The notes below the pieces were generated by a model. The model saw nothing but the letters and a program-made list of their open reading frames with translations. It was not told the DNA's origin and did no database searches. Below are positions 174 through 55,535 of a stretch of DNA of 55,535 nucleotides, piece after piece. The translations under genes and the position numbers were made by a program. Numbering within the stretch: the first letter of the stretch is position 1; each line of letters begins with the position of its first letter. The stretch is from a virus (Duplodnaviria > Caudoviricetes), in IMG/VR virus record IMGVR_UViG_3300030677_000007, positions 1-55,535 of that record. The stretch is one strand, 5' to 3'.

Positions 174-3113
174 TCAGGACAGGCCGGCGAACCAGCCGTT
201 ACTGGAACCGGACAACGTGCCGAGGCTGGCCGGCATTGCCGTGGTCTGCCCCGTAGCGGCCGTCGCGAAGCGGGCACTCCCCGCGGTGAGCTTGTAGTTC
301 GCCGCAGACTGCGAGACACCCCGGAGGAATGTGGGCAGCGTGGTGCCGTTCGCGAACCAGCCGATGAGGTAATCCCCGGGCAGCAAGTTGTACGGGCCTC
401 CGAGCAGCGGCATCGTCTTCGCGCCGCTGGAGGCCCAGTTGGTGGACTGGTCGGCGGTGGATGCGACAAGCGCCCCGGCGCTGGTGTAGAGCCCAGCGAA
501 GCACTCGCCGGCGGTGAGGGACGCCCCGGCCGCCGTGGCGAACAGCTCGATGTTCGTGGCCGAAGCGGCGACGGGGACGTGGACTCGGGCGACGTTGACG
601 GTCCCTGCCGCTGCGAGGATCGTGCCGCTCGCGCAGGTAGCAGGGTCCACGGTCCAGGTGATGAGGCCGTGGTCCTCCGGAGCCCAGTAGGTCCGCGGAT
701 GGCCGTGATCCCACGGAGCCGCGAGCGGGCCGGAGCCCGGGCTGCCAGGTGTGGCCGCCTTCTTGGGGATGTCGGTGGTGTCGATCGTGGCGGCCACGCT
801 GGAGTTCGTGGTGGCCCACCTCAGCACCTCACCGACGGGCATCACAGGGATGCCGCGCGAGACGATCCCGGAGACGATGGATTGCAGGTCCGATTGCAGG
901 ATCTGCGTGGCCGCGGTCGGCGTCGTGGTGACGACCTCGTGGAACGCGAGGATCAGCCAGCTCCCGTTCGCCTTGCACAGGTCGAGGTCGCCGCCCGCTT
1001 GGGTGAGCTGGGTGGGCAGGTACGACCCGGCGAAGGAGCTGATCCCGCTGATCCGCCGGGTCCGCCACGGGTCGGACATCGGGAACGTCTCTTTGGTCTT
1101 GTTGACCGTGGTGACGGCGTGCGCAAAGTACTTCTGGAGAATCGAGGTGGTGTTGACCCCATCGGACGTGAGGCCGTACGCACCCTTCGGGTAGGCCAGT
1201 AGGTCGGCCCCTCGAAAGCCGTTCGCGACTGCGTAGGCCTTCAGGGCACGGGCGTCCGCGTCAAGCTGCGCCGCCGTGACCCCGGTGAACGTCGCAGCGT
1301 GCACTGCGTCCTGGTCCGCGTGGACCGCCAGCTCCCAGCCACTGTCGTTCTGGAGCTGGGTGAGCTGGGCCTGTGTGAGATGCCCGGGCGTCCCGATGAG
1401 GCTGGCGATCGTGTATGTCGTCGCCGCGAACCCAGCGGCGTCCAGCACCTCCCTGCCGAGCGTGATCGCGTCCTCGTAGGAGTCGTCCCAGGTGAGCGTG
1501 ACCATTCCGTGTGGGAACGTCAGCGTCCCGTCGGGGATGAGCTCCACGCCCTGGAGGTGAACCGTAGCCGCGTTGGCGGAGCCGCCGCCGATGTCGGTGA
1601 TACGGAAACGGACGGCTGCGAGGCCGGTCCGGGCGCCGGCGCCGTTCTGGGCGGCGTCGTGGAACGACAGGCTCTGGGTGACCCAGTCGCCCGAGGTGTA
1701 GTAGTTGCTGCCGCTGGCGCCGCCCTGCATGGTCCAGGTCCAGCCGTTGCTCCAGCTGGTGTCGGTGCAGATGTCGATCTCGAACGACAGCAGGGTGTTG
1801 ATGTTGGCGATCTGGGCGGTGATGCGCGGCACCATGCCGGTGGAGCTGGCCGAGGTGACCGCGCCGTAGACGTAGTAGGTGGCACCGTCGCCGGGGGTGA
1901 CCAGCGTCGCGCACTGCGTGCCGCGGACGCAGGGGGTCGTGGTGTCGTTCGCGGTGAAGGTGGCACCCGATGCGACGAATCCGTGGCCCGGCTGGAACTC
2001 GGTCAAGATCGCGGACGGCTGCGGCTCGCGGGGCATCCGGTAGGTCGGGTGGTAGATGATGCTGGTGTCGAGGCTCAATGCAGCCAGGTATGTTGCTGCG
2101 GCCGAGGCCTCTGCGGTGGCGATGGCGCCGGCCGCGGCCCCGGCCGCGTCGTAGGCTCCGTTCGCCCGGGTCACCTCAGCGGCGACCTGGGTTCCGGTGT
2201 AGGCCTCCGCCGTAGTCACCGCGCCGGCGGCGGCCCCCGCCGCGTCGTAGGCCGAGTTCGCACGGCTGACCTCGGCCGTGATCTTGGTGTTGGTGTACGT
2301 CTCAGAAGTGCTCTGTGCGGCAGCCGCCGCGCCTGACGCGTCGTAGGCCGAGTTCGCTCGCGTCACCTCGGCGCTGACCTCGGCGGCGCTGTACGCCTCC
2401 GCCGCTGTCTGGGCCGCCGCTGCCGCTCCAGCAGCGTCGTAGGCCGCGTTCGCCCGGGCCACCTCGCCGCTGATCTGGCCGCTGGTGTACGTCTCCGCTG
2501 CTGTCTGTGCTGCGGTCGCCGCCCCGGTGGCGTCGTAGGCCGCGTTCGCGCGTGTCACCTCCGCCGCGACCTGCTGCCCGGCGTACGTCTCCGCAATGCT
2601 CTGCGCGCTGGCCGCCGCCCCTGCCGCGTCGAACGCGGTCGCCGCCGCCGTCGCGGCCGTTCCCAGCCCGAGGTTCTCTCGGGCCAGCGGCGGCGACTCC
2701 AAGTCGTCGAGGTTGTTCGCCACCAGCAGCGCCAGGCCGCCGCCGCCACTGCCGCTGCCGGAGGACGAGCCCACCGGTGCCAGCGCCGCGAGGTCGGCTG
2801 TCGGGCTCGCCGCCGGCAGCGTGATGCTGAACGGCTGCCGGGGCACCGTCCCGTCCCGCCACGACTCCACCACCGTGTACGTCCAGCCTGACGGCGTCAC
2901 CCCGGCCGCATCCGTCGCCAGCAGGTGGATGGTGAACTGCCCAGTGGCCTCGTCCGGAGTGGCGACGATCGGCCCCAGGATGGTGATGCCCGAGCCAGCA
3001 GCGGCCACTGCGGACGGCTCGGGGGTGAACGTGACGGTGCCCAGGCAGGCGCTGCCGTCGGCGTGGCTGTACTGGGCGAAGAGGGCGACGGTCTGTAGAC
3101 CGGTCAGCGCCAC
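174..3113 (-). CDS. Tail fibre/appendage protein with Ala-rich repeats and a CE4 (NodB-like) polysaccharide deacetylase domain
   Basis: GTG start after AGGAGG. Actinophage minor-tail N-terminus (GTVTFTP...GWTYTVVE). CE4 motifs TLTWDD, ELAVH, LAYPKG, LAFH at ~820-1505. Confidence 0.75.
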   Translation of the reverse strand: MALTGLQTVALFAQYSHADGSACLGTVTFTPEPSAVAAAGSGITILGPIVATPDEATGQFTIHLLATDAAGVTPSGWTYTVVESWRDGTVPRQPFSITLPAASPTADLAALAPVGSSSGSGSGGGGLALLVANNLDDLESPPLARENLGLGTAATAAATAFDAAGAAASAQSIAETYAGQQVAAEVTRANAAYDATGAATAAQTAAETYTSGQISGEVARANAAYDAAGAAAAAQTAAEAYSAAEVSAEVTRANSAYDASGAAAAAQSTSETYTNTKITAEVSRANSAYDAAGAAAGAVTTAEAYTGTQVAAEVTRANGAYDAAGAAAGAIATAEASAAATYLAALSLDTSIIYHPTYRMPREPQPSAILTEFQPGHGFVASGATFTANDTTTPCVRGTQCATLVTPGDGATYYVYGAVTSASSTGMVPRITAQIANINTLLSFEIDICTDTSWSNGWTWTMQGGASGSNYYTSGDWVTQSLSFHDAAQNGAGARTGLAAVRFRITDIGGGSANAATVHLQGVELIPDGTLTFPHGMVTLTWDDSYEDAITLGREVLDAAGFAATTYTIASLIGTPGHLTQAQLTQLQNDSGWELAVHADQDAVHAATFTGVTAAQLDADARALKAYAVANGFRGADLLAYPKGAYGLTSDGVNTTSILQKYFAHAVTTVNKTKETFPMSDPWRTRRISGISSFAGSYLPTQLTQAGGDLDLCKANGSWLILAFHEVVTTTPTAATQILQSDLQSIVSGIVSRGIPVMPVGEVLRWATTNSSVAATIDTTDIPKKAATPGSPGSGPLAAPWDHGHPRTYWAPEDHGLITWTVDPATCASGTILAAAGTVNVARVHVPVAASATNIELFATAAGASLTAGECFAGLYTSAGALVASTADQSTNWASSGAKTMPLLGGPYNLLPGDYLIGWFANGTTLPTFLRGVSQSAANYKLTAGSARFATAATGQTTAMPASLGTLSGSSNGWFAGLS
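2090..2640 (-). repeat. About six 96-bp (32-aa) coding tandem repeats
   Basis: gcgtcg(t/a)a recurs at 2146, 2242, 2338, 2434, 2530, 2626; unit YDAAGAAAAAQTAAEAYxxxxVxAEVTRANxA. Confidence 0.9.
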
Positions 3114-3146
3114 GAAGGGCCTCCTACGGTGAGGGGAAACGGAAAG

Positions 3147-3177
3147 GCCCCCGCCCGGCGGAAAGCCGGACGGGGGC
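3147..3177 (-). terminator. Putative intrinsic terminator after the lysis cassette
   Basis: gcccccg-ccgg...ccgg-cgggggc stem followed by tttc on the minus strand. Confidence 0.5.
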
Positions 3178-3184
3178 AAGGTGT

Positions 3185-3511
3185 TCAGTGGTGCAGGTAG
3201 ACGGCACCGATCTCGCTGGCCGTGACGAGCGCAGTGATGCCACCGGCGGTCATCCACACCTTTCGCTCGACCGCCTTCAGCCGGTCGGCGACTCCGGCCA
3301 GTGGCCCCAGCCGCTTGTCGACGACGTCCAGGCGCTCGTCATGGCGAGCCAGGGCGGCACGGTGCTCCGCGTGCTGCCGGTCGGACTGCTCGGACCGCAG
3401 GACCAGGAGCGCCAGCGAGCCGTTGATCTCCGCCAGCCCCCTGCCGAGCTCGCCGCGCAGCCGTTCCAGCTCCAGCGCCGTGGCGTGGTCCGGCTGCGGC
3501 GGTGCGGTCAC
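3185..3511 (-). CDS. Lysis-cassette membrane protein (coiled coil plus C-terminal TM helix)
   Basis: GTG overlaps the upstream stop; ends KVWMTAGGITALVTA. Confidence 0.6.
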   Translation of the reverse strand: MTAPPQPDHATALELERLRGELGRGLAEINGSLALLVLRSEQSDRQHAEHRAALARHDERLDVVDKRLGPLAGVADRLKAVERKVWMTAGGITALVTASEIGAVYLHH

Positions 3512-16497: not shown

Positions 16498-16995
16498 CTA
16501 CGCGATGTACTCGCTGTCGTCGGCGGTGTAGGTGATCGTCGCCGTGAGCAGGCCGGCGGCGATGCCCGTGATCGGGTCGCCGAGGTTTGTGTCGAACGCG
16601 GCCCCGTTCGGGGTCTCACCCACCGCCTGGAATCTGTTGCCGTGCGTCTTGTCGGTGACGAAGCCCTCCAGGCGGCCGATGACCGCTGCGAGGGCGATGT
16701 CCAGGGCGCGCTGCTCGCTCTCCGTGATGCCCGGGCCCGTGAAGCCCTGCCCGATCGGCCACGTTGCAGTCACCTGGAGGTAGTGCGTCGCCAGCCGTCG
16801 CTGCTGCGCGAATCGGACCGTCGGGTAGCGGCGCCGGATCACGTACAGCTGGGTCTGCCTCATGTTCGGTGTTCGGGGTGCGTACGCCTGGATCACGTCC
16901 CACGGGCCGCCGGCGCCGCGAAGCAGCGTCGGTAGCCCGTCGCCGGTCGTCAGAAGCCACGCGGCCTCGCGGTCGGGTGCATCAGCGAGGCTCAA
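16498..16995 (-). CDS. Putative tail terminator/connector protein
   Basis: TTG start overlapping the upstream stop, AGGAGG RBS, position before the major tail gene. Confidence 0.55.
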   Translation of the reverse strand: MSLADAPDREAAWLLTTGDGLPTLLRGAGGPWDVIQAYAPRTPNMRQTQLYVIRRRYPTVRFAQQRRLATHYLQVTATWPIGQGFTGPGITESEQRALDIALAAVIGRLEGFVTDKTHGNRFQAVGETPNGAAFDTNLGDPITGIAAGLLTATITYTADDSEYIA

Positions 16996-17651
16996 CGCCC
17001 CCTCCTTCTGCGTCTGGTGATCCTCTTGGCACGGTCGGCGCGCGCGGCGATCCGGCCTCCGGCTCGGGCGCGGCGCGGCCTGGGGCCGCCCTGCTTTCCG
17101 TGATGGCGGACGATCTGCCAGTGGTGGTGTCGGTGGCCGGCCCGGGTCCAGTGGTGTCGGCGGTGCCCGCGCCGGTCGGGGTGGCGGTGGCCCTGGCGGC
17201 TGCGCCGCGCCTTCCGGTAGCCGGACCGCAGATGCCGCGGGGTGGGCAGCCGCCGCGACCGGTGCCGCGCCGTCGACCCGTGTCGGCGTGCCTTGAGCGC
17301 GGCGGAGATCTTCGCCCGGGTGGCCGCTGACAGCGCGTGGCCCTTGTGCCGGTGGTGCCGTCCCTTGAGAGCCGCGGAGATCTTCGCCCGCTCGGCAGCC
17401 GTGAGCTTGTGGCCCTTGTGATGCTTGCCCTTCAGCGCGGCGGAGATCTTCGCCCGCTCCGCAGGAGTCGGCTTGTGGCCCTTGCGGTGCTTCCCTTTCA
17501 GGGCTGCCGAGATCTTCGCCCGGGCGGCGGCCGACAGCTTGTGACCTTTGTGGTGCTTGCCCTTCTCGCGCTCGCTGATCTTCTTCCGGGCGGCGGAGGA
17601 GAGGTGGCGCTTGACCGTGTGCTTGGCGGCGGTGTGGACGCCCCAGGTCAC
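16992..17651 (-). CDS. Very basic protein with five NUMOD3-like repeats and an Arg/His-rich tail
   Basis: xSAAARAKISAALKGKHHKGHK x5; 4-nt overlaps with both neighbours. Confidence 0.75.
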   Translation of the reverse strand: MTWGVHTAAKHTVKRHLSSAARKKISEREKGKHHKGHKLSAAARAKISAALKGKHRKGHKPTPAERAKISAALKGKHHKGHKLTAAERAKISAALKGRHHRHKGHALSAATRAKISAALKARRHGSTARHRSRRLPTPRHLRSGYRKARRSRQGHRHPDRRGHRRHHWTRAGHRHHHWQIVRHHGKQGGPRPRRARAGGRIAARADRAKRITRRRRRGR

Positions 17652-18319
17652 CGGTAGCCCTCCAGGATCGCCGTGGCGTCGGCGGCCAGGATGTCCGGGT
17701 CGTGGCCGTGCTGCTGACCGGTGGGGTCCAGCTCACGGGCGATCAACGAAGCCGTCATGAGCTTGCTCGCCCGGGAGAGGTCGGCCGGCGCCGGGCGGTA
17801 CCCGCCGCCGTAGGTGTAGGTGACGAAGCTGCCGACTGGCAGGAAGGTCCCGATCGGGTACCAGATGTGGCCGGTGTCGGGATCCGGTCCGCGCACGTTC
17901 GCGAGGTTCACCAGCTGGTCGCCGCCGTAGGAGCGGGAGATGAGGATCGACTCCAGGGAGTAGGTCCACATGTCCGCGTACTTTACGGCGTACTGGGACA
18001 GCCAGCCGTGGCGGACGAGCGACGTCGTGCCCATGGAGTAGGCGTAGGACAGGCCCAGCGTCCCGGCGAGGTCGAGCGGGACGCTGCCGGCGTCGATGTA
18101 CTCGTCCGGGTCGATGCCGGTCGAGCGCTCCGTCTCGACCAGGCCAGTGAAAGGCGCTAGGCGACGGCCGGCGCCCTCCGACCCCTCACAGATGCGGGTG
18201 GCCTCGGACAGGACATCGGACTGGGCCTGTGGGTCGGTGTAGCCGCGCACCAGGTCGGCGAACGCACCCTCGGTTAGCTGCGCCCAGGTGCACAGCGGCG
18301 TGGGGGTATCCGTCGCCAT
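17648..18319 (-). CDS. Head-tail adaptor (gp6/gp15-like)
   Basis: Position after capsid; TYTYGGGY..PADL and ..ILEGYR motifs. Confidence 0.7.
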   Translation of the reverse strand: MATDTPTPLCTWAQLTEGAFADLVRGYTDPQAQSDVLSEATRICEGSEGAGRRLAPFTGLVETERSTGIDPDEYIDAGSVPLDLAGTLGLSYAYSMGTTSLVRHGWLSQYAVKYADMWTYSLESILISRSYGGDQLVNLANVRGPDPDTGHIWYPIGTFLPVGSFVTYTYGGGYRPAPADLSRASKLMTASLIARELDPTGQQHGHDPDILAADATAILEGYR

Positions 18320-27990: not shown

Positions 27991-27992
27991 CG

Positions 27993-28064
27993 TGGCGGGG
28001 GCCGGGTTCGAACCGGCGGCCTCCGGGACATGAGCCCGGCGCGCTACCTCTGCGCTACCCCGCA
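27993..28064 (-). tRNA. tRNA-Met(CAT), initiator-like
   Basis: Full cloverleaf; 1:72 mismatch; three G-C pairs closing the anticodon stem; loop CTCATGT; no encoded CCA. Confidence 0.88.
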
Positions 28065-33913: not shown

Positions 33914-33952
33914 GCGGATCCTCCTGGGTTGGCGGGTTGATGGTTGGCGGGT

Positions 33953-34504
33953 TCAGCCGGGTAGGCAGCCGTTGGCGTGCAGGATCTGGCCGTTGGCGCG
34001 CGGGGTGCCGCAGTCCTTGCACCGGTCGGTGGCCGAGGGCTCCGGCCGCGCACCGACAGAGGCGGCGGTCAGCTGACGGAGCCGCTGGTACTTCTCCTCG
34101 GTGGTGTGGCCGTCCCAGCCGATGGCGAACGGATCGGCCCAGGAGACGTGATCGAACAGGTCGAGGTCGTCGGGGTTGATGTGCCAGCACATCTGGCCGG
34201 CGTCCGGCTCGACCATGAGGACGGGCCAGGTTGGGACGTCCGGGTCGCTGTAGGCGAGGTGAGCCTGATGGCGGGCGGCGAAGTCCGCGAGCAGGTAGGC
34301 GCATTCGCGGTAGGCCGCGCTTCGCTCTGCGTGTGCCTGCTCCAGCTCGGCACGGAGACGCTGCACCTCGACCTGGAGATCCAGTGCGATCTCGTGGAGG
34401 GCTTCCTCGTTGCCATCGTTGTACGTCGCCGTGGACCAGGTGCTCGTGCGCTCGCCGTACTGGGCGAGACGAACCTCGGCGGGGATGAGCTGCCTGTCGG
34501 TCAT
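33953..34504 (-). CDS. WDGH-motif protein
   Basis: GQMCWH...WDGHTTEEKYQRL. Confidence 0.7.
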   Translation of the reverse strand: MTDRQLIPAEVRLAQYGERTSTWSTATYNDGNEEALHEIALDLQVEVQRLRAELEQAHAERSAAYRECAYLLADFAARHQAHLAYSDPDVPTWPVLMVEPDAGQMCWHINPDDLDLFDHVSWADPFAIGWDGHTTEEKYQRLRQLTAASVGARPEPSATDRCKDCGTPRANGQILHANGCLPG

Positions 34505-39685: not shown

Positions 39686-39919
39686 TCAGGGGGTCTCCGG
39701 GGCGGCCGGGTTGGCGGGTTGATGGTTGGCGCGTTCAGCCGCTGCGGCGGTGCGTTCGGCGTGGATGGTGGCGATCTGGATTCGGATGCACTCGCTCCTG
39801 ATCGCCACGTCGTCCATCGCCTCGACCCGGGCCCGGAACGCTGCGGTGTTCTGCCGGGCCTGCTCGGCGGCCCGTGCTCTGTCGGCCGCGGTGAGGGCGG
39901 CCAGGAACCGGCGCCACAT
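39686..39919 (-). CDS. Hypothetical protein
   Basis: Coupled to the upstream ORF. Confidence 0.5.
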   Translation of the reverse strand: MWRRFLAALTAADRARAAEQARQNTAAFRARVEAMDDVAIRSECIRIQIATIHAERTAAAAERANHQPANPAAPETP

Positions 39920-46866: not shown

Positions 46867-47148
46867 TCAGGCCGCCGGGCGCGCCTGGGCGGGCAAGTGC
46901 GGCCGACGGGTCCGGGCTGCTGGGGCGAGTGCGGGGTTGCTTCGCGAGTCCGCGGCCTTGCATGCCTTGAGGTAGTCGTCCAGCGCGGTGATCTCGTAGA
47001 CCACGCGTCCGGCGTGCTTGAAGCTCGCCGGGCCCACGCGGCGGTGGCGCCACTTGTGCAGGGTGCTGTCCTCGACACCGAGCCGCTTGGCGGCTTCGGG
47101 GAGCCAGACACAGCCTGCTGGTGCGCGGCCGCGCATGATGGCGGTCAC
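46867..47148 (-). CDS. Excisionase-like (AlpA/HTH_17) protein
   Basis: EAAKRLGV..STL..WR....GP...K..GRV.Y. Confidence 0.8.
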   Translation of the reverse strand: MTAIMRGRAPAGCVWLPEAAKRLGVEDSTLHKWRHRRVGPASFKHAGRVVYEITALDDYLKACKAADSRSNPALAPAARTRRPHLPAQARPAA

Positions 47149-47432
47149 ATCTCCTCCTGGGGGTCGTCAGTACGATGGGCGGAATCGTCAGCATTCGGAG
47201 ACGGCGGAGGCGCAAAAAGGACCAGTACGGCGACGCCGAGGGCCTCCGCGATGCGGTGGGCGTGCTGCATGTCCGCATCGACTCGCTGGCCGGAGAGCAG
47301 GTGTCCGATCGTCGTAGGCGAGCAACCGACGGCTTCGGCCAGCGTTCGCACGCTGTATGAGGTGCCCCGGCCGGGGTGCTGCATGATGCGGCGCATGAGA
47401 TCGCGGTCGCGCAAGGTGTAGCGGATGATCAC
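47145..47432 (-). CDS. Cro-like XRE HTH regulator
   Basis: SVRTLAEAVGCS..TIGHL; first gene of the early operon. Confidence 0.8.
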   Translation of the reverse strand: MIIRYTLRDRDLMRRIMQHPGRGTSYSVRTLAEAVGCSPTTIGHLLSGQRVDADMQHAHRIAEALGVAVLVLFAPPPSPNADDSAHRTDDPQEEM

Positions 47433-47447
47433 TGTCTCTCCATGTGC

Positions 47448-47620
47448 GACGTTCCGTCTCGCTGTGCTGACGAAGATAGCCAACTTGAGACGTGTCGTCT
47501 AGGAATCCTGACGAAATGATGTGGATGTTGTGTGGGTGTACCGTGGCGATGGCGTCGATCTGTAGACATTCCGTCTGCTGATTGAGACGCTATGCGGCGA
47601 CTGACCTGCGACGATCCGTC
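47448..47620. promoter_or_regulatory. Immunity switch with four GAC-N5-GTC operators
   Basis: GACGTTCCGTC 47448, GACGTGTCGTC 47489, GACATTCCGTC 47565, GACGATCCGTC 47610. Confidence 0.65.
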
Positions 47621-47673
47621 GCCAGGCGGGCATATGCCTGATACAGGTGATGTGCACGAGACAGGAGATTCCG

Positions 47674-48078
47674 ATGGCACCAGCAGGCGAACAGCCGCGC
47701 GATGCCCTCTCAGCGCTCCTCCGCGAGGCCAACGCCGCCGGCGACTCCTACATGGACCTCTCGAAGAGGGCCATCGACCCGGAGACCGGCCAGAGGCTGG
47801 GCAAGCCGTGGATTAACAACCTGGCACTCGACAAGCAGACGTCCGCGCCGAAGCCTTGGCAGTTGCGCGCCATCGCAGCATGCTTGGCCAAGCCGCTGAC
47901 CTTCGTTCAGAGCGCAGCCGCACGCCAGTACCTCGACTTCGAGGTGAAGGCCCTCTCCGGCTACAGCGACGACGTGCGTGTGGTCGTCAGCCACCTGGCC
48001 GGGATGACCGAGACCGAGGTTCGGCAGTACCGGGCGATGGTCGAGGCCTCTGAGCGCATCAAGCACGAACAGCAGTAG
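47674..48078 (+). CDS. Putative immunity repressor (XRE-like)
   Basis: AGGAG RBS; divergent from cro and upstream of int; SY..LS.RAID..TG. Confidence 0.7.
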   Translation: MAPAGEQPRDALSALLREANAAGDSYMDLSKRAIDPETGQRLGKPWINNLALDKQTSAPKPWQLRAIAACLAKPLTFVQSAAARQYLDFEVKALSGYSDDVRVVVSHLAGMTETEVRQYRAMVEASERIKHEQQ

Positions 48079-48102
48079 CCGACGGCTACCGGAGGGGGAA
48101 TC

Positions 48103-48360
48103 GTGATCAGGAAGGTCTACAAACTGGACCCGGAGCTGGGCCCCGATGTGCCGATGGAGGCACGCGAGACTCGGGGCCAGATCGTGTATCACTGCTCGCC
48201 AGCGCACTTCACAGAAGAGGCGGTCATCAACCTGACCCTCGTCGAGCAGAAGTTGCTGGAGGGCGGGCACTGGTTCCAGCTGTGGGGCGGCGAGATCGTC
48301 TCGATGGAGTCTCCCGACATCCCACCTGCCGATCCAGGGCAAGAATCTGACGCCGCGTAG
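48103..48360 (+). CDS. Small hypothetical protein between repressor and integrase
   Basis: GGAGGGGG RBS. Confidence 0.7.
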   Translation: MIRKVYKLDPELGPDVPMEARETRGQIVYHCSPAHFTEEAVINLTLVEQKLLEGGHWFQLWGGEIVSMESPDIPPADPGQESDAA

Positions 48361-48389
48361 CGGCGGCCCGGACCAGGGGGGAGGCGGAG

Positions 48390-49643
48390 ATGCCCGGCTA
48401 TATCGAGGACCGCTGGATGTTCAAGCGGGTCAACAAAGAGACCGGCAAGCGAGAGCGCAAGGACCGGTACGGGCAAGGTCTGCGCTATCGCGTGTGCGGC
48501 ATTCCCGGCGTCAAGGATGAATCATTTGCGGTACTAGCCGACGCAAAGAACTGGTTGGCGAGCGCGCAGACGGATGTCCGGCGTGGTGTCTTCATCGACC
48601 CGGAGCTCGGCCAGCAGCTGCTGCGCGACTACTTCGAAGAGGTCTACTGGCCCGGAGTCGTCGTGTCCTTGGGCACGAGCCGCACGATGCTTGGCAAGAT
48701 CCGCAACCACATTCTTCCCCACCTGGGCCACTTGCCGCTCGCTGAGATCCAGGAGGAGCACATCCGCACCTGGGTCGCGACAGTCCGGCGCACCCAGGCC
48801 GTCAGCACTACTCGCGTGATCTACGACTACCTGTCGGCGATCCTCAACGCTGCGCACACATCAGGACGCAAGACGTCCAACCCGTGCTCAATCCGGGGCA
48901 TCAGGCCGAGGAAGCCCGGTAAGAAAGCGCGGGCTTTCCAGGCCGTACAGGTGAGTTCCCTGCGAGAAGAACTGCGACCCCGGGACCGAATCGTCCTGGA
49001 TCTGGGAATCGGGGCGGGCCTGCGCCAGGGCGAGGTACTCGGGTTCGCGCCGGAGGACATCGATGAGGCAGCGGGAATGCTCCACATCCGCCGGCAGGTG
49101 CAGCGCGACGGAGGCCGCGCCTACCTGAAGTTGCCGAAGGGCGACAAGGAGAGGGACGTGCCTCTGTCGGACGGGCTGCTGGCACGCTTGCGGGCGTACA
49201 TGGAGCAGTTCGAGCCGGTGGAGATGACCCTGCCGTGGATCGGCCCCGGCGGCCCTGGCGGCCCAGATGAGAAGGTGACGACCCGGCTGTTGGTCACGAC
49301 GCGCTACCGCAATGCGGTGGACGGCAGCAGCTGGGATCTCGACTCTTGGAAGCCGGCGCTCGGGCGCGCCGGCATCATCCGCGACCAGGGCCACGGCGTG
49401 CGCCGGGCGACGGCATCCCACCGAGGCAGCTGGCCCGGTACCCGCGAGTTCGGGTTCCACATTGCGAGGCACACCTACGCCTCTGTGCAGCTCCAGGCGG
49501 GCGAGAGCATCGTGGACTTGTCGGGCTGGCTGGGGCACGACGACCCCGGCTTTACGCTGCGGACGTACACTCACTTCATGCCCGGCGCGGGCGCCAAGGG
49601 CCGCACAGCGATGGACGCGTGGATGGCAACAGCGGCCGCGTAA
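48390..49643 (+). CDS. int: Tyrosine integrase
   Basis: GLRQGE, K, HIARH, LGH, catalytic Y in TLRTYTH. Confidence 0.95.
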   Translation: MPGYIEDRWMFKRVNKETGKRERKDRYGQGLRYRVCGIPGVKDESFAVLADAKNWLASAQTDVRRGVFIDPELGQQLLRDYFEEVYWPGVVVSLGTSRTMLGKIRNHILPHLGHLPLAEIQEEHIRTWVATVRRTQAVSTTRVIYDYLSAILNAAHTSGRKTSNPCSIRGIRPRKPGKKARAFQAVQVSSLREELRPRDRIVLDLGIGAGLRQGEVLGFAPEDIDEAAGMLHIRRQVQRDGGRAYLKLPKGDKERDVPLSDGLLARLRAYMEQFEPVEMTLPWIGPGGPGGPDEKVTTRLLVTTRYRNAVDGSSWDLDSWKPALGRAGIIRDQGHGVRRATASHRGSWPGTREFGFHIARHTYASVQLQAGESIVDLSGWLGHDDPGFTLRTYTHFMPGAGAKGRTAMDAWMATAAA

Positions 49644-50053
49644 AAGATCTCTACTAGAACTCTACGGGGCCCGATTCGAGCCCTGAGGGCGTCCGCTCGA
49701 TCGCGGCGCCGGACCGCCCCGGAGATCGGCTGGGATCCCGGGGCGGTCGGTGTTTACGCAGGTGAAAGGGCAGTCGGCGGCGGGTGGGTCAGCTGCGGGT
49801 GGCGAGGGCGCGGAGGAAGAAGGTGAGGTTGGCGGGGCGTTCGGCGAGGCGGCGCATGAAGTAGCCGTACTACCTACCGCCACCCGGGGCGTATCCCCAG
49901 GTCGAGGTCCATCAGGCCCTCCGCAGTGGCCATGACGTGCTTAGACGTCCCGTGACGCCTTGAGACGACCTAGGACCAACTTGAGACAGTTGGCCCCCTA
50001 CCAGGGCCCTACGGAAAGTGGATCACTACGAATACTCCCCGAGATCTACCCAC
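49644..50053. other. attP region
   Basis: Non-coding DNA after int containing a host-gene 3' fragment, CTAC-containing arm-like repeats on both sides and 10-bp phased GAC repeats. Confidence 0.75.
49789..49870 (-). pseudogene. 3' fragment of a proline dehydrogenase gene (attP replacement sequence)
   Basis: Translates YGYFMRRLAERPANLTFFLRALATRS*; preceded in frame by TAG. Confidence 0.88.
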
Positions 50054-50079
50054 TTGACCTGGGTAAACACCATCATACG

Positions 50080-50123
50080 GAAGGCCCCGCTCTCCGGTAC
50101 CTTCGCCGGGGAGCGGGGCCTTC
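50080..50123. terminator. Strong hairpin terminator
   Basis: gaaggccccgctc-ccgg...ccgg-gagcggggccttc. Confidence 0.8.
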
Positions 50124-50133
50124 AGCCCGTCGA

Positions 50134-50412
50134 TCAAGCAGTCAGAGCCACGGCCGGAGGCCCCGGCACATACGGGCGCCCCGTCCGCAGAGCATCGTGC
50201 TCACGCTCACCCTCCATGAGGCTCGTACACGCCCCGCAGGCACGAACGGGGTGCGGGCCGGGGAGATCGGATGGCCGGATGCTCCCCACCACGGCAGTGG
50301 GTACGCTGCGGCGGGCACAGCGGAAGCAGCTCCCGTCCACCCATTGGTAGAGCGCGAGGATCTCAGCGGGTGTGAGGGTAGGAGCTGATGGTTCTCCGGG
50401 CAACGCGCGCAT
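50134..50412 (-). CDS. Small Zn-ribbon hypothetical protein
   Basis: GAGGAG RBS; CFRC and CGAC. Confidence 0.65.
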   Translation of the reverse strand: MRALPGEPSAPTLTPAEILALYQWVDGSCFRCARRSVPTAVVGSIRPSDLPGPHPVRACGACTSLMEGEREHDALRTGRPYVPGPPAVALTA

Positions 50413-50609
50413 CTCCTCTTTGGTTCGCCTGCTACGGCCGCCCAAGAACGGCTCGGCCTCCGAACGAGGCAGGCTGAGGAGCAGAACCGGATCAGGCGAT
50501 GGTGACGCGATCCGACCGTCCCTCTACTGCCTCCGAGAGAAACTGGCGAGACGAGGGCCAACTGGGTCGCCGCACCGGCCCCGGCCCCCCGTCGCTCGCC
50601 GCAGTGCCC

Positions 50610-50816
50610 TCACCCGGTCCAGATCGAGTCGTCCGGAGCAGCCGCTCCGCCCGACGGGCTCGGGGACGCGCTCGGCACAACGCTGTCGACGGTCCAGATG
50701 GAGTCGGACCGCGGGTGCGCGGGTCCGGCCGGCCGGGGCGCGAGGACCGCAATGGCGGCGACCGCAAGCACGGCCAGGGCCACCGCCGGATGGCGAAGAG
50801 CTCGGGACAACGGCAA
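50610..50816 (-). CDS. Secreted pro-peptide with duplicated DSIWT motif
   Basis: AAGGAG RBS and TTG start; basic n-region plus hydrophobic h-region; DSIWT at 50691-50705 and 50616-50630. Confidence 0.8.
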   Translation of the reverse strand: MPLSRALRHPAVALAVLAVAAIAVLAPRPAGPAHPRSDSIWTVDSVVPSASPSPSGGAAAPDDSIWTG

Positions 50817-51002
50817 CTTGACTCCTTATTTCGCAGCGCAACTTCGCGAGCACAGCTGACTACCACAGTGATATGGCCGGGGCCTCGCACGTTGCGGCAT
50901 CGATTCCGTGCGATCTACAGTCAAGCACTGATAGAACTCGGTCAAGGCGTAGTGGCCGTGGGTTCCCGCCAGGGGGTTTTCCACCATGCAGAGAGATGAG
51001 CT

Positions 51003-52013
51003 ATGTCCGAATCGTCGGATTCGCAAAACGGCAGGCGCCTCGTATCCAGCAACGCTATCGAGGCGTACAGGATCATCGTTTCCGGTGGGGACGCCTCCGG
51101 CCAGCCGGAGGCCGTAGCCGAGCTCCGAGCCGCGGGGCTGGTGGTGCCCATGCCCGGCTCCACGGATCGACTCCTCGCCGTTGATCCACACGAGGCGCTG
51201 CCCCGGCGCCGAGAGGAGTTGCACCGCGCCGCACGTGCGCTGATGGACGACGCGGACGCCATCGTCCCCCTCCAGCGTGAGCTGACGGCTGCGTTCCGCA
51301 TCGCGCGAACCGACCTGTGGAGCCAGGGCATCGAGCGCCCACGGGACCTCGCAGAGGCCAATGTGCGGATCGCCGCAATCCTCTCCAACGCCGTCCAGGA
51401 TCTGCTCACCATGCAGCCCGGGCATCGCCAAGAAAGCACCCTGGAGGCGTCTGCCGACCGTGATTTCGACGCCCTGGAGAGGGGCATCAAGATGCGGACT
51501 CTCTACATGGATAGCGAGCGCGAATATCCGTACATTCAAAAATGGGTGGCCGAGGCAAATCAGCGTGGCGCTGAAATTCGTACCATGCCGCGCACCTTCA
51601 TGAGGGCCATCATTATTGACCAGCGTATTGCCGTCATTACCGACCGCACGAGGACATCCGGTCCCGGCGCTGTCCCTGGTGCCGCCGTCATCGTCCACGA
51701 CGTTGGCGTCGTCGGCGAACTCGTGAGCCAGTTCGAGCGGGAGTGGGCACAAGCGCGCCCATGGGACGGCCAGTCAAATTCGCAGGTCAACCGCCTTGGT
51801 GAGCTCTCGCAGGTTCAGCAGGACGTGCTACTGGGACTCGTGAGCGGGGCCACCCAGAAGAGCCTCGGGGCCCGACTGGGGATGAGCGTCCGCCAAATCG
51901 AACGTGCTATCGATGAAATCAAGCGAGTCATCGATCCATCCGGCGGCCCGGTCTCCGCTGCCCAGATGGGGTACTGGTGCGCCCGCATGCAAGCGCTGGA
52001 CGAGGTCAGGTAG
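51003..52013 (+). CDS. TrmB-like/PLD-fold sensor plus LuxR-type HTH regulator
   Basis: L...GLV..DP N-terminus; RGI.MRTLY, GAEIRT, R.IIID...A, F...W..A.P middle domain; C-terminal LS..Q..VL..L..G.T...G.RLGMS.R HTH. Confidence 0.85.
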   Translation: MSESSDSQNGRRLVSSNAIEAYRIIVSGGDASGQPEAVAELRAAGLVVPMPGSTDRLLAVDPHEALPRRREELHRAARALMDDADAIVPLQRELTAAFRIARTDLWSQGIERPRDLAEANVRIAAILSNAVQDLLTMQPGHRQESTLEASADRDFDALERGIKMRTLYMDSEREYPYIQKWVAEANQRGAEIRTMPRTFMRAIIIDQRIAVITDRTRTSGPGAVPGAAVIVHDVGVVGELVSQFEREWAQARPWDGQSNSQVNRLGELSQVQQDVLLGLVSGATQKSLGARLGMSVRQIERAIDEIKRVIDPSGGPVSAAQMGYWCARMQALDEVR

Positions 52014-52095
52014 GGGCAATCCCATTGATCTGCCATGAACGCGACAGAACGAAACTCCGGCATATGCATTTCACGCACGCAAGCGGAGTCAGATC

Positions 52096-52107
52096 TGCTA
52101 CGTAGCA
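52096..52107. promoter_or_regulatory. 12-bp palindrome upstream of GntR
   Basis: TGCTACGTAGCA in an AT-richer intergenic region. Confidence 0.4.
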
Positions 52108-52168
52108 ACGTCAGCCATATTCCCTAGCCTCGGCCCTATCACTGGCATGATCACCGACTGGGGCACGG

Positions 52169-52825
52169 ATGAGCGACGCGCAGTATCAGCGCATCGCCGC
52201 AACCCTCCGGCAGCAGATCGCCGACGGCTCACTCCCACCGGGGGCTCCCCTTCCGTCTTGGCGCGCCTTGGCCGTCGAGCACGGTACCGGCCAGGGAGCA
52301 GTCCGCCTGGCGATCCAGCTCCTGCGGACCGAAGGCCTCGTAGAGGGGCGGCAGCGCGCCCGCCTGACGGTGGCCCACCCTGTACCCGTGCATACCCTCA
52401 CGCACCCCGACGCCCCATGGCCCCACGGCCAGGGCGACAGCGAGACAATCACCACCGCCGCCACAGCCGACATCGCCGACCGGCTGCACCTGCGGACAGG
52501 TACCCGCGTCCGGCGCCGCCGCACCGAATACCTCGACTCCGCAGGACGCCCGTCACACCTCGTCACCGTCTGGCGCCACCGCAGATCACCCGTGGACGCC
52601 ACGGCCATGACCGTCGAGATCAGCAGCCGCCAGCTCACCCCAGACGAGGCACTCGCGCTCGGACTGGCCCGCGAGACCTCAGCGCTGCACCTCATCCGCA
52701 CCCACCTCGCCTCCGACGGCCGGCCACTCGACACCGCCGACCTCGTACTGCCAGCCGACCGATGGCGGATCCGCCTCGGAACCGACTCGCTGATCGCATC
52801 AGCTCACCCTTCCCCGTCCGACTGA
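52169..52825 (+). CDS. GntR-family regulator with degenerate UTRA-like domain
   Basis: YQRIA..LR.QI..G.L.PG..LPS...L. Confidence 0.85.
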   Translation: MSDAQYQRIAATLRQQIADGSLPPGAPLPSWRALAVEHGTGQGAVRLAIQLLRTEGLVEGRQRARLTVAHPVPVHTLTHPDAPWPHGQGDSETITTAATADIADRLHLRTGTRVRRRRTEYLDSAGRPSHLVTVWRHRRSPVDATAMTVEISSRQLTPDEALALGLARETSALHLIRTHLASDGRPLDTADLVLPADRWRIRLGTDSLIASAHPSPSD

Positions 52826-53166
52826 GCTCCCCGGGCCTGGGCGGCGGCCAGCTCTTCGGCGACCTCCCGCAGGCGGCTGGCATAGCCGGTGAGCATGTCG
52901 GCGAAGGCGTGGACGTCGGACGGCTGGTCCATGGTCACGTGCGCCACCATCTGCGTCGAGGCGCAGGCTTCGCTGTCCTCGGGGCCGGCGTAAGGGGACC
53001 AGTTGATGGTGGTCTCGAAGTCGACGTCGAGTTGCTTCCACTTCGCGGCCAAGGTGACCGGCCGGGACTCGTGGAACCGGTCGGCGACGGCTACGTCGTC
53101 CCAGGGGTGGTTCCCCGTGCACCAGTCCGGGCAGCGGCGCAGCGGATTGGTGTTGGTGTCGGTCAT
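52804..53166 (-). CDS. DUF6907-like protein
   Basis: CPDWC...H.......H motif; AAGGA RBS. Confidence 0.7.
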   Translation of the reverse strand: MTDTNTNPLRRCPDWCTGNHPWDDVAVADRFHESRPVTLAAKWKQLDVDFETTINWSPYAGPEDSEACASTQMVAHVTMDQPSDVHAFADMLTGYASRLREVAEELAAAQARGAQSDGEG

Positions 53167-53525
53167 AGTGAGTAGGTCCTTGGCGTCTCGGCGTACGGAG
53201 TGACGGGCGGGTTCTTCTCGCACGGCGGGCAGATGACCACGGTCCAGCCGGGCCCGCTGGACTGATCGATATGTTCGACCAGTCGGCCAACCGTCTCGCG
53301 CCCGCAGTGGCGGCAGTGCCCGAAGGCCCGTTTCTCCGCGATGCTGCTCGCCGCGGTGCCGGCCGCCGCGGCCATCGCCTCGGCCTCCTCCATGAACCGC
53401 TTCCAGCAGTCCGGATGGGTCACCCCGACCAGCGGCGACACCCGATTGCCCGGCTCCAGGCGCGCGACCGGACTGCCCGCCGGGTTCATGCAGTAGTCGC
53501 AGATGTGCTCCCTCGGACCGTTCAC
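53163..53525 (-). CDS. Zn-binding hypothetical protein
   Basis: CDYC, HPDC, CRHC, SGPG...CPPC. Confidence 0.65.
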   Translation of the reverse strand: MNGPREHICDYCMNPAGSPVARLEPGNRVSPLVGVTHPDCWKRFMEEAEAMAAAAGTAASSIAEKRAFGHCRHCGRETVGRLVEHIDQSSGPGWTVVICPPCEKNPPVTPYAETPRTYSL

Positions 53526-53761
53526 GATCCCTCCCCGGTGAGGTCGTCGATGATCGCCAGGGCGTTGAAGAGGCTGGCCCGCAGCGCCCCGGCCGCCTGG
53601 GCGACCTCGAACGGAGAAGCGCCCGCCAGGTCCAGCTCATGGGCCCGCTGCAAGTCGTTCTTGGCCACCCGCACACGGAAGTCCTGCTCCGGCGATAAGC
53701 ACCGCACGGGGTCAGCAGGGTCGGTCAGCAGCAGGGTCAAGGAATCCACAGAATCTGCCAT
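53522..53761 (-). CDS. Small hypothetical protein
   Basis: GTGA coupling to the next gene. Confidence 0.55.
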   Translation of the reverse strand: MADSVDSLTLLLTDPADPVRCLSPEQDFRVRVAKNDLQRAHELDLAGASPFEVAQAAGALRASLFNALAIIDDLTGEGS

Positions 53762-53847
53762 ACCCAGCACGGTAGAGAAGGGCGTTGCTGCAACGCTCCG
53801 AAGTTGCTTCGGATTGCTTGCGCACGGCGCCGGGTTTCCCGGGATGT

Positions 53848-54690
53848 CTACGCAAGGTCCAGAGCGGAGCGCGCCCGGGCGATGAGGCGGTGTGCCTGAG
53901 CGCCGTAGAAGGCGGAGTCGTTCAGCGTGTCCCAGATCTTGGTGAACAGCTCAACGTCAGTGGCGTCGTCGAGCCACATCTCGGCGTTCCATGTCTCGGA
54001 GATCACGAGCCGGTCGTCGTAGATCCAGAAGCCATCACCGGGGGCGATCTTGAGGGGTGCCTCGAAGGGGATGATGCCGAGTGAGACAGTGTCCATTCCG
54101 AGTAGCCCGGTCAGCCGATCCAGCTGCCCAACCAGGACCTCCGGGCGGCAGATGAGCACGCGGAGCGCTCCCTCCCAGATCAGGACGTGGAACTGCCGTC
54201 CCGGTTCGTACAGGGCTTCTTGGCGTCTCATCCGGGCACTCACGGCCGGTTCGATGTCCCTTGGCGTGCCGCGTAGTTCCACGTATCGAGTGAGAACGGC
54301 GCGAGCGTACTCGGCTGTCTGGAAGATGCCAGGGATCACCCCGAACTCGGCGCCGCGCATCACCCGTGTCTGCGAAAGCTCGACGATTCCGGCTTCCTGC
54401 CGGGCCCGGTGACCACTCGCCAGCTGCCTACGCCAGGAGCGGTAGCGCGTCTCGAAGCCTCGCAGGCGCCCCTTCAGTTCAGCTGCCGACTCTGGGTTAC
54501 CCACACCACGTGCCCAGGCGTCGAGGTCCGCCAGGCTGGGAGTCTGCTTGCCGTTCTCCAGCTTGCTCACCTTCGAAGGCAGCCAGCCCAGGCTCCCCGC
54601 CAGCTGCCGCCCGGTCAGGCCGGCCTCGGTGCGCAGCTCGCGCAGCCGCGCACCGAGGGTCATTCGGGCCTGTTGGAAGTCTGTGCTCAC
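53848..54690 (-). CDS. XRE HTH plus DUF5753 (Scr1-type) regulator
   Basis: LG.RLRELR..AGLTG, SK.ENG.Q, IPG.FQT.EYA, R..RQ..L, E..L. Confidence 0.9.
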   Translation of the reverse strand: MSTDFQQARMTLGARLRELRTEAGLTGRQLAGSLGWLPSKVSKLENGKQTPSLADLDAWARGVGNPESAAELKGRLRGFETRYRSWRRQLASGHRARQEAGIVELSQTRVMRGAEFGVIPGIFQTAEYARAVLTRYVELRGTPRDIEPAVSARMRRQEALYEPGRQFHVLIWEGALRVLICRPEVLVGQLDRLTGLLGMDTVSLGIIPFEAPLKIAPGDGFWIYDDRLVISETWNAEMWLDDATDVELFTKIWDTLNDSAFYGAQAHRLIARARSALDLA

Positions 54691-55220
54691 TTCACAGACG
54701 GTACCTCCGCCAGGAAGTCCCGGGCTGGGATCGCGAAGTGCAGCGCGGCATCCCGGATCTGGCAGCCCCGCAGCACCTCGGCTGGCTTGTCACTCAGCGT
54801 CATTCCGAGGGAGCGGTCACCATCGAACTGGAAGACCCCGATGGTGCGGGAATCGAACAGCCAGAAGTCGAACTCTGGCAATCCGCAGCGAAGTGCTTCA
54901 GCGCGGAGCAGGTATCGGATGTCCTCACCTGCGTCGATGCTGTCGGTGACATCAGCGAGCAGGAACCTCTGGTAGTCGGTCAGTGGTTCGTCCGCAAGGC
55001 GCACCCGGCCCACGGTCTTCCCCTGCAAGGCGAGGTGCCGCATAAGCACCAGCCACGGTCGGCCTGGGTCGGACACGTCCTCGCCGCGTAGGAATGCCCG
55101 GAGCGCTTCGCTCTCGGCCGCGACGCCGTAGGCGCGCCGTGTCTCCCATCGCCATGCTGTGTGCTGGAATCCGTCGCGGAAGAACTCCGTGATGGCCGGG
55201 CCGCTGATGAGGTCGGCCAC
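54687..55220 (-). CDS. DUF6879-like protein
   Basis: AWRWE.R..Y, RVR...P.TDYQ, AGEDIRY, DFWLFD. Confidence 0.85.
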   Translation of the reverse strand: MADLISGPAITEFFRDGFQHTAWRWETRRAYGVAAESEALRAFLRGEDVSDPGRPWLVLMRHLALQGKTVGRVRLADEPLTDYQRFLLADVTDSIDAGEDIRYLLRAEALRCGLPEFDFWLFDSRTIGVFQFDGDRSLGMTLSDKPAEVLRGCQIRDAALHFAIPARDFLAEVPSVK

Positions 55221-55225
55221 GCCGC

Positions 55226-55432
55226 CTACTCCTTGGGCGCGAAGCGCACCAGCAGGGACTTCGGGATGACGACGAAGGTCTCCCCGGCACGCACGTCCTT
55301 GAGCTGCGCCAGCGCCTCGGGGTCGTCGAGGATGTCACCCTGGACAACCATCCGCTCGGTGTCGTCCTCGATCTCGTACAGGGTCGGGCAGTCGCCATCC
55401 TTGGACGTGGTGCCGACGAACTTGAGCCTCAT
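55226..55432 (-). CDS. Small conserved partner of the DUF6879/DUF5753 pair
   Basis: GAAAGGTGAT RBS; F.G..S..G.CPTLY...VVQG...GE..V.IP. Confidence 0.8.
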   Translation of the reverse strand: MRLKFVGTTSKDGDCPTLYEIEDDTERMVVQGDILDDPEALAQLKDVRAGETFVVIPKSLLVRFAPKE

Positions 55433-55535
55433 GGTGATCACCTTTCGCTCCTCCCGGCCGATTACCGGGCTGCTGCGCACGGTAGCGCCGGGGCGCCGAG
55501 ATACAGAAGACCGCCCCCCCCCGGCACATCGCCAG
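55393..55535. repeat. Terminal direct repeat, right copy
   Basis: Matches 1-143 with two mismatches in the last 20 nt. Confidence 0.95.

Follow-up and report, generated by a model that had tools for sequence, protein, structure and literature searches.

A small precursor gene with repeated D-x-x-W units beside a TrmB-like/LuxR-type regulator: a candidate peptide signalling cassette on phages, plasmids and chromosomes of Streptomycetaceae

The window examined here is the whole of IMG/VR virus record IMGVR_UViG_3300030677_000007 (Duplodnaviria; Caudoviricetes), a stretch of 55,535 nt. Between positions 50,610 and 52,013 it carries a small gene for a putative secreted pro-peptide with two copies of the pentapeptide DSIWT, head-to-head with a gene for a regulator that joins a TrmB-like, phospholipase D (PLD)-like domain to a LuxR-type helix-turn-helix (HTH). 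As judged by sequence comparison, a conserved small precursor gene is linked here, on opposite strands, with the gene of a cytoplasmic regulator, and both travel as a unit on phages, plasmids and chromosomes. The pair is probably a two-gene pro-peptide/receptor signalling cassette, similar in layout to the Phr and arbitrium systems and built on a non-homologous receptor fold.

The pro-peptide has the sequence MPLSRALRHPAVALAVLAVAAIAVLAPRPAGPAHPRSDSIWTVDSVVPSASPSPSGGAAAPDDSIWTG. Its N-terminal region contains two arginines, then a 16-residue run of Ala, Val, Leu and Ile with AVLA at its end. The signal calls throughout this work come from a crude rule, which asks for K/R and for 11 or more hydrophobic residues in a row, and not from a trained predictor. 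The two DSIWT copies differ in their serine codon (TCC versus TCG), and the second copy ends one residue from the C-terminus. A preliminary description of this stretch, made from the DNA letters alone, had noted the 68-residue open reading frame (ORF), its strong ribosome-binding site, its signal-like start, the two DSIWT copies and the synonymous difference between them, and all of these are borne out at 50610-50816 on the minus strand. GC content at third codon positions (GC3) is 0.83 in the pro-peptide frame versus 0.67-0.70 in four overlapping frames. No Pfam or NCBIfam family was found for the peptide. As a query against the genomes, the pro-peptide gave only matches with E>=0.03, one of which (L012) later proved to be a true instance.

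Recurrence of the pair beside homologous regulators

Homologues of the regulator were taken as all 65 matches at E<=1e-25, which come from 55 of 301 Streptomycetaceae genomes. A strict rule sought an ORF of at most 140 residues, no more than 1 kb from the regulator, in which the same four-residue D..W unit occurs at least twice and the last copy lies at most 3 residues from the C-terminus. A looser rule sought an ORF no more than 1.2 kb from the regulator that has a signal-like N-terminus and, at its C-terminus, a D..W with 0-3 residues after it. Size-matched ORFs from other parts of the loci, from the whole window and from unrelated loci served as controls.

The strict rule is positive at 30 of the 65 loci, where the ORFs contain two to four identical D-x-x-W repeats. 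Without exception these 30 ORFs and their regulators lie on opposite strands; 22 of the ORFs are upstream and divergent, as in the window, and 8 are downstream and convergent. The crude signal test, which is not part of the strict rule, is passed by 30/30 of these peptides versus 48/684 control ORFs. The looser rule adds single-copy forms and is positive at 47 of the 65 loci; at four orthologous loci, an ORF that fits it lies 1.7-2 kb away, which gives 51/65 in all. The 14 best regulator matches (L018-L031) are all peptide-positive. Among the controls, the strict rule gave 3 matches in 1,510 ORFs, all true instances, and the looser rule gave 5 in 1,235, namely the window ORF and the four distant orthologous loci. 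Over both rules, the control matches comprise the window ORF, its counterpart in G085 (a Streptomycetaceae genome with a related prophage), a locus that overlaps L076, and the four distant orthologues; no unrelated ORF is among them. The preliminary description had proposed looking for a small signal-bearing ORF with repeated DxxW motifs beside homologous regulators, and these counts come out in its favour.

Precursor anatomy, selection and co-variation

A total of 57 precursors were collected, in all of which the C-terminal position of the unit is required by the rule itself. The unit is present once in 19 precursors, twice in 29, three times in 6 and four times in 3. Its second position is Ser in 30 and Thr in 14, the third is variable, and the fifth is Gly in 31, Thr in 9 and Asn in 9. 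The C-terminal Trp is followed by one residue in 39 precursors, by two in 14, by three in 1 and by none in 3. Of the 38 precursors with more than one copy, 24 have the first copy directly after a small-x-small triplet, the usual signal-peptidase context. Because signal peptidase would set the N-terminus of the first copy and the stop codon sets the C-terminus of the last, a peptide of about 5 residues is predicted for those precursors.

A comparison of the window ORF with that of G085 separates the motif from its surroundings. The 14 motif codons (DSIWTVDS and DSIWTG) include 11 identical, 3 synonymous and 0 non-synonymous positions, versus 13 identical, 11 synonymous and 30 non-synonymous among the other 54 aligned codons (Fisher p = 1.2e-4). 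By this codon comparison, purifying selection acts on the DSIWT motif, and the remainder of the precursor drifts. Both DSIWT copies are also kept in a metagenomic variant with a slightly different tail and an 80% identical regulator.

The core of the unit and the regulator diversify together, in line with the co-variation suggested in the preliminary description. Median regulator identity is 0.79 for the 28 pairs that share a five-residue core versus 0.31 for the 1,298 pairs with different cores, and peptide presence clusters on the regulator tree (11 changes versus about 22 after shuffling, a number as low being reached in 0 of 500 shuffles); both measures are treated as descriptive because relatedness inflates them. 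At one chromosomal site, orthologous regulators that are 74-80% identical are accompanied by different cores (DINWG, DMNWG, DLHWS, DSAWT and DSNWT), and on sequence these differences look like pherotype divergence.

The regulator

The preliminary description had read the regulator as a TrmB/PLD-like protein with a LuxR-type HTH and without the tetratricopeptide repeat (TPR) fold of the arbitrium receptor, and profile and structure comparisons agree on this. A profile built from 39 relatives and compared with PDB sequences matches TrmBL2 (5bpd) over regulator positions 34-252 (E 6.5e-7) and NarL (1je8) over positions 259-322 (E 3.1e-9). The AlphaFold2 model of the regulator has a pLDDT (predicted local distance difference test) of 90.5, and Foldseek matches it to 5bpd (E 3.7e-11), 3qph (E 1.8e-7) and 2f5t (E 1.7e-5), the best structural matches being TrmBL2, TrmB and the PLD-fold protein Nuc. 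PF00196 is matched at E<=0.01 by 27 of 39 family members, while the window protein alone falls below the Pfam cut-off. The Pfam search gave no TPR for the window regulator or for any of the 39 family members. The C-terminal sugar-binding beta-barrel sub-domain of TrmB is not present; residues 264-335 are helical and form a NarL/GerE-like HTH.

The window regulator lacks the HxK(x)4D (HKD) catalytic motif, and no His or Lys is invariant in the 39-sequence alignment. The same alignment has six invariant residues (P139, R142, G161, G189, R193 and D206), all in the middle domain. No hydrophobic run of 15 residues or more occurs in the window regulator. Given the lack of a long hydrophobic segment and of the HKD motif, the protein is taken to be cytoplasmic, with a catalytically dead, ligand-type middle domain. 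The family is large; it has 1,708 cluster representatives at a threshold of E<=1e-3, of which 511 remain at E<=1e-10. No PHROG was found for the regulator, and BFVD contains no viral structure with its whole architecture. A co-fold of the regulator with pro-peptide residues 27-68 scored 0.04 and 0.02, which gives no verdict for or against binding.

Distribution on phages, plasmids and chromosomes

In the cultured Streptomyces phage Chymera (KU958700), which was isolated on its host, the laboratory strain S. venezuelae ATCC 10712, the genes run in the order immunity repressor, integrase, gp31, gp30, gp29, gp28. Its gp29 is the regulator, 26% identical to that of the window, and gp28 is an XRE protein. 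Between regulator and gp31, gp30 is an annotated coding sequence (CDS) for a 59-residue signal-peptide protein in which one DPGWG follows immediately on an AQA site and a second stands at the C-terminus. Since the Chymera and window integrases are only 23% identical, the cassette is not a recently shared block. Six further IMG/VR contigs carry the regulator, four of them with the peptide. The viral contig L097 has the pair with an integrase fragment upstream and an XRE gene downstream; the viral loci L101 and L102 have a regulator without a partner ORF.

The regulator is matched at E<=1e-10 by 69 plasmid records, 67 from Streptomyces and 2 from Kitasatospora, in which it is named "LuxR C-terminal-related transcriptional regulator", "helix-turn-helix transcriptional regulator" or "hypothetical protein". 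Three of the four plasmids inspected have the peptide as a PGAP-annotated CDS ("hypothetical protein"), with DSAWG twice, DTTWG three times and DTTWG twice, and the plasmid locus L092 has no partner ORF.

On chromosomes, one clade of 21 loci (within L034-L084, for example L075 1-5894) has the regulator directly after grpE-dnaJ-hspR. It is followed there by a convergent signal-peptide gene, a PF05014-like ORF of about 250 residues and a second, paralogous regulator, and the peptide core varies by species (DSAWT, DSNWT, DINWG, DMNWG and DLHWS). About 10 loci nearer the phage type have an XRE gene of about 81 residues after the regulator. Clustering of the neighbours shows that only grpE/dnaJ/hspR, the PF05014-like ORF, the paralogous regulator and the small XRE gene recur; no protease, transporter or modifying enzyme is recurrent in the neighbourhoods examined. 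Two papers describe SCO2686, SCO3665 and SCO3666 as LuxR-family proteins of 338, 327 and 394 residues (PMC3282765) and SCO2686 and SCO3664 as down-modulators of actinorhodin (PMC6585502). By size and position near hspR, SCO2686, SCO3665 and SCO3666 may be members of the family, and S. coelicolor SCO3664-SCO3666 may be the grpE-dnaJ-hspR-linked locus.

Phage genome, attachment site and neighbouring genes

The window is a GC-rich (about 70%) record that fits a temperate phage with Streptomyces-like bacteria as hosts, and it encodes a tape-measure protein, a large terminase, a portal, a major head protein and a tail-fibre-like protein. Its two ends overlap (1-143 and 55393-55535; 143 nt at 99%, the first 126 nt exact), so that it is a circular assembly of about 55.39 kb and not a fragment. 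The record is labelled "linear" in IMG/VR, with a CheckV completeness estimate of 62%. The related prophage in G085, with 56.6 kb between its attachment (att) repeats, suggests that the window is a complete phage genome.

The portal, integrase and regulator of the G085 prophage are 94%, 73% and 77% identical to those of the window. This prophage is flanked by a perfect 83-nt direct repeat (attL/attR) at 6661749-6661831 and 6718319-6718401, 56.6 kb apart. The repeat matches window positions 49796-49872, which places attP between the integrase and the peptide/regulator module. Once the prophage is integrated, the module therefore lies at an end of it, with about 740 nt between module and attP; the preliminary description had likewise set the pair beside attP. 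No tRNA was found at the attP core. Read on the minus strand, the core resembles the 3' end of a host protein-coding gene, and the phage therefore probably integrates into, and restores, the end of that gene. The coordinates of the pair and its surroundings are collected in Table 1.

Table 1. Features of the peptide/regulator region of the window
Feature	Position	Strand	Remarks
Tyrosine integrase	48390-49643		Neighbours: excisionase-like gene and XRE-type gene
attP core	49796..49872	.	87% identity over 75-77 nt to the G085 83-nt attL/attR repeat
Small ORF, 103 aa, two CxxC pairs	50134..50445	-	Between attP and the peptide gene; 56% protein identity to the syntenic G085 ORF
Pro-peptide gene, 68 aa, TTG start	50610..50816	-	Same two DSIWT copies in homologous ORFs of G085 and of metagenome loci L094/L095
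DSIWT copy 2	50616..50630	-	GAC TCG ATC TGG ACC, then Gly and stop codon
DSIWT copy 1	50691..50705	-	GAC TCC ATC TGG ACC
Signal-like N-terminus, aa 1-26	50739..50816	-	Crude rule only
Ribosome-binding site AAGGAG	50822..50827 (+ strand numbering)	-	5 nt ahead of TTG; sequence reading
21-nt intergenic block, candidate operator or promoter element	50902..50922	.	Invariant in 4/4 related loci
Second conserved intergenic block, TTyCCGCCAGG.GGTTTTCC.CCA	50955..50986	.	Just upstream of the regulator start
Regulator, 336 aa	51003..52013	+	Start 186 nt from the pro-peptide gene, head-to-head, opposite strand
Regulator domains			Degenerate winged-helix aa 16-59; long helix 62-105; PLD-like without HKD ~116-250; LuxR/GerE-type HTH ~264-335
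GntR/UTRA regulator gene	52169..52825	+	155 nt downstream of the regulator, same strand; Pfam GntR E 8e-14, UTRA E 1e-7

The intergenic region was aligned among the window, G085, L094 and L093. Both conserved blocks are invariant or nearly so in these four related loci, and their surroundings diverge. The 21-nt block occurs a single time in the window at up to 3 mismatches (0 expected by chance); as there is no second copy, no link can be drawn to the repressor/Cro region near 47.1-48.1 kb. A simple promoter scan of 50400-52300 and an Rfam scan of 47000-55535 gave nothing. The GntR/UTRA gene downstream of the regulator is syntenic and 72% identical in G085, the small XRE gene occupies that position at other loci, and the GntR/UTRA gene is a possible output gene. 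The 103-residue ORF between attP and the peptide gene has a GC3 of only 0.71 and no Pfam or PHROG match.

A search for sequencing runs with this stretch gave 24 peat-metagenome DNA runs and no RNA run. Four of the 24 (X4, X6, X8 and X12) were checked over 50400-52100 and gave identical contigs, with no informative variation over the peptide ORF. Two of the four (X4 and X6) contain the window's exact form together with a second form of the regulator that is about 80% identical. The intergenic sequence of this second form equals that of L094, which encodes DSIWT twice, and by sequence related phages with a shared peptide core may co-occur in these runs.

Several other features of the window lie away from the pair. 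A phage-encoded tRNA-Met (CAT) gene at 27992-28064 on the minus strand separates the packaging genes from the leftward early region. At 53848-55220 (minus strand), an HTH_31/DUF5753 gene has a DUF6879 gene after it, and the two recur in the same order in the G085 prophage at 37-39% identity. Five tandem 96-nt copies, 69-76% identical to the reference copy, are located at 2105-2584 inside the tail-fibre-like ORF 174-3257(-), and a unit of about 66-72 nt is repeated four times (70-80% identity) at 17282-17565 inside ORF 16498-17736(-). A 34-nt direct repeat (97% identical) is found in the early/replication region at 33926-33959 and 39708-39741, 5.8 kb apart.

Interpretation and alternative explanations

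If the pair is a signalling cassette, the pro-peptide would be exported via Sec and cut by signal peptidase, so that in many relatives the first Asp would become the new N-terminus. Extracellular host proteases would then free peptides of about 5-7 residues (here DSIWT or DSIWTG), which would build up with producer density and be taken up via the host oligopeptide permease. Inside the cell, the peptide would bind the catalytically dead PLD-like domain, where all six invariant residues lie; two of these, R142 and R193, are predicted to contact the Asp or the C-terminal carboxylate of the peptide. Binding would alter how the regulator contacts DNA in the 186-nt divergent promoter region, at its conserved blocks, and would thereby change how strongly the peptide gene, the regulator gene and the GntR-type gene downstream are expressed. 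Located beside attP and the integrase, such a cassette would let a phage or prophage gauge the number of nearby kin-infected or lysogenic cells. The cassette is at the prophage end beside the integrase in the window phage, and also in Chymera and L097. The comparative test supports the proposal of the preliminary description that this may be an analogue of arbitrium built on an unrelated fold, and the domain call and the attP position given there are also right.

The output of the phage cassette is harder to name. A lysis-lysogeny choice or induction is a somewhat doubtful assignment, and the cassette could alternatively change a behaviour or trait of the host. The family is found on chromosomes and plasmids and is thus wider than phages, so that the role of an arbitrium analogue is only one of those possible for the phage copy.

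Several observations weigh against a signalling cassette, or at least against its simplest form. Export, processing, import, binding and a lysis-lysogeny role are all argued by analogy, and the signal peptide itself is a prediction by the crude rule. Unlike many relatives, the window precursor has 11 residues between the likely signal-peptidase site (after AVLA) and its first DSIWT copy, and further proteolysis would therefore be needed there. The detection rules require D and W, and the invariance of these two residues is therefore partly built in. By the looser rule, 14 of the 65 loci have no partner ORF within the DNA examined (L036, L037, L041, L047, L064, L066, L071, L072, L077, L078, L079, L080, L086 and L087). 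L041 is probably negative because it is cut short by the 1.5-kb flank, its close relative L042 being positive. Five weaker loci from a scan of genome contigs (L005-L009) have no partner ORF by either rule. From the 14 partnerless regulators it follows that some family members can work without an adjacent peptide, or that the rule misses other motifs. The same core also accompanies regulators that are only 28-32% identical, so that the code between peptide and regulator is not strictly one-to-one. Sites adjacent to attP are a classic place for lysogenic-conversion cargo, and position beside attP is therefore no argument, taken alone, for a lysis-lysogeny role. The TrmB family is known for sugar ligands, and we know of no precedent for peptide binding.

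Three rival explanations were weighed. The secreted product might have a non-signalling role, as an antimicrobial or RiPP-like precursor (a peptide made by the ribosome and modified after translation), as a surface-active or cell-wall-binding peptide, or in superinfection exclusion, while the divergent regulator senses some other small molecule. Divergent regulator-target pairs are common, TrmB-type domains are known for small-molecule sugar ligands, repeated Trp-containing cores occur in multi-core RiPP precursors, and the absence of the peptide beside 14 of 65 regulators would fit as well. However, no modifying enzyme, dedicated exporter or immunity gene recurs beside the pair, the cassette is mobile as just two genes on phages and plasmids, and its five-residue core changes with the regulator, which a mere target gene need not do. 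A non-signalling product is rated as improbable. The peptide could also be a signal that a membrane receptor of the host, encoded at some other place, detects at the cell surface, with the adjacent regulator only a transcription factor or downstream component. Many Gram-positive peptide signals act via histidine kinases, and import of the peptide is a postulate of the preferred reading. Yet a phage or plasmid carrying only the peptide and a cytoplasmic regulator would need a matching receptor in its host, while the core diversifies rapidly with the linked regulator, and no kinase is recurrent in the neighbourhoods examined; the chance that a surface receptor is involved seems slimmer still.

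The third rival is a chance open frame in GC-rich DNA with an accidental duplication of DSIWT; in its favour, five ORFs of 68-166 residues overlap the stretch in other frames and the ORF matches no protein family. Its GC3, however, is the highest among the overlapping frames, it has a strong ribosome-binding site, and the motif changes only synonymously. Comparable ORFs recur beside homologous regulators with no unrelated control match, and counterparts are annotated as CDSs on plasmids (by PGAP) and in the Chymera record. As far as sequence can tell, the comparative data refute a chance frame, to which we give almost no credence.

Quorum sensing in which an intracellular receptor reads a peptide is regarded as a hallmark of Bacillota. 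It may be, on a balance that tips slightly to the other side, that Streptomycetaceae and their phages and plasmids have an independently evolved peptide quorum sensing of their own, in which D-x-x-W-x pentapeptides (1-4 copies per Sec-exported precursor) are read inside the cell by a TrmB-like/PLD-like/LuxR receptor; the cassettes of actinophages (the window, Chymera and L097) would then be a second, non-homologous invention of the arbitrium type, and the conserved chromosomal copy adjacent to the dnaK operon would encode a peptide signal of the host itself. If so, peptide sensing would have a new receptor fold, phage-encoded peptide communication would have a second, independent case, and antibiotic-producing Streptomyces would use diversifying peptide "languages", with the family in 55 of the 301 sampled genomes at the strict threshold and on at least 69 plasmids. 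The system is directly testable, because a cultured phage, Chymera, carries the cassette and the predicted pentapeptide is delimited by the signal-peptidase site in one copy and by the stop codon in the other.

Comparison with known systems

Signals in Actinomycetota are typically small molecules, according to the introduction of PMC10075063, and none of the words Streptomyces, Actinobacteria, Actinomycetota and TrmB appears in a 2026 review on how phages communicate (PMC13389391). The literature covered, from which most subscription journals are missing, yielded no account of the motif strings, of a peptide receptor of the TrmB-LuxR kind or of Streptomyces phages that communicate by peptides; an earlier publication may exist.

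The closest parallel in arrangement is arbitrium (AimR-AimP-AimX) of Bacillus SPbeta-group phages. Both are phage-borne and have a small pro-peptide of Sec type (here a predicted one) with a conserved C-terminal unit, an adjacent cytoplasmic DNA-binding receptor (here a putative one), a peptide that diversifies rapidly with the receptor and a regulatory gene just downstream. AimR, however, is a TPR protein of the RRNPP family, whereas the regulator here has a TrmB-like/PLD-like fold and a LuxR HTH. The AimP gene is co-directional and downstream of its receptor, whereas the peptide gene here is divergent or convergent. The D-x-x-W-x unit, often in 2-4 copies, and the Actinomycetota hosts are further differences, and no aimX-like element was identified here.

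Much the same can be said of the RRNPP cassettes of Bacillota (Rap-Phr, NprR-NprX, PlcR-PapR and Rgg-SHP). According to PMC10075063, these are two-gene systems of a pro-peptide and an intracellular receptor that occur on chromosomes, plasmids and phages, with a C-terminal mature peptide and pherotype-like diversification. Adjacency of the pro-peptide gene to the receptor gene is a feature of RRNPP systems that is also seen here, at 186 nt in the window and within 1.2 kb at 47/65 loci. The regulator has neither RRNPP homology nor TPRs, however, and the orientation of the genes departs from the RRNPP rule.

In its fold, the regulator is nearest to the archaeal TrmB and TrmBL2 regulators, with which it shares an N-terminal winged helix, a long helix for dimerisation and a PLD-like domain of effector type that lacks catalytic residues. 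Its winged helix is shorter, the sugar-binding beta-barrel of TrmB is replaced by a LuxR/GerE HTH, and the candidate ligand is a peptide and not a sugar. A C-terminal GerE/LuxR HTH is also found in the LuxR-family "solo" regulators of Streptomyces and in gamma-butyrolactone systems; unlike these, the regulator has no autoinducer-binding or receiver domain, and the linked signal gene encodes a ribosomal peptide instead of a butyrolactone or N-acyl homoserine lactone synthase. We know of no protein with a TrmB-like domain or a LuxR/GerE HTH that has been linked to a peptide ligand. The logic of a pro-peptide paired with an intracellular receptor is thus a known one, while the non-homologous parts and the phylum are new.

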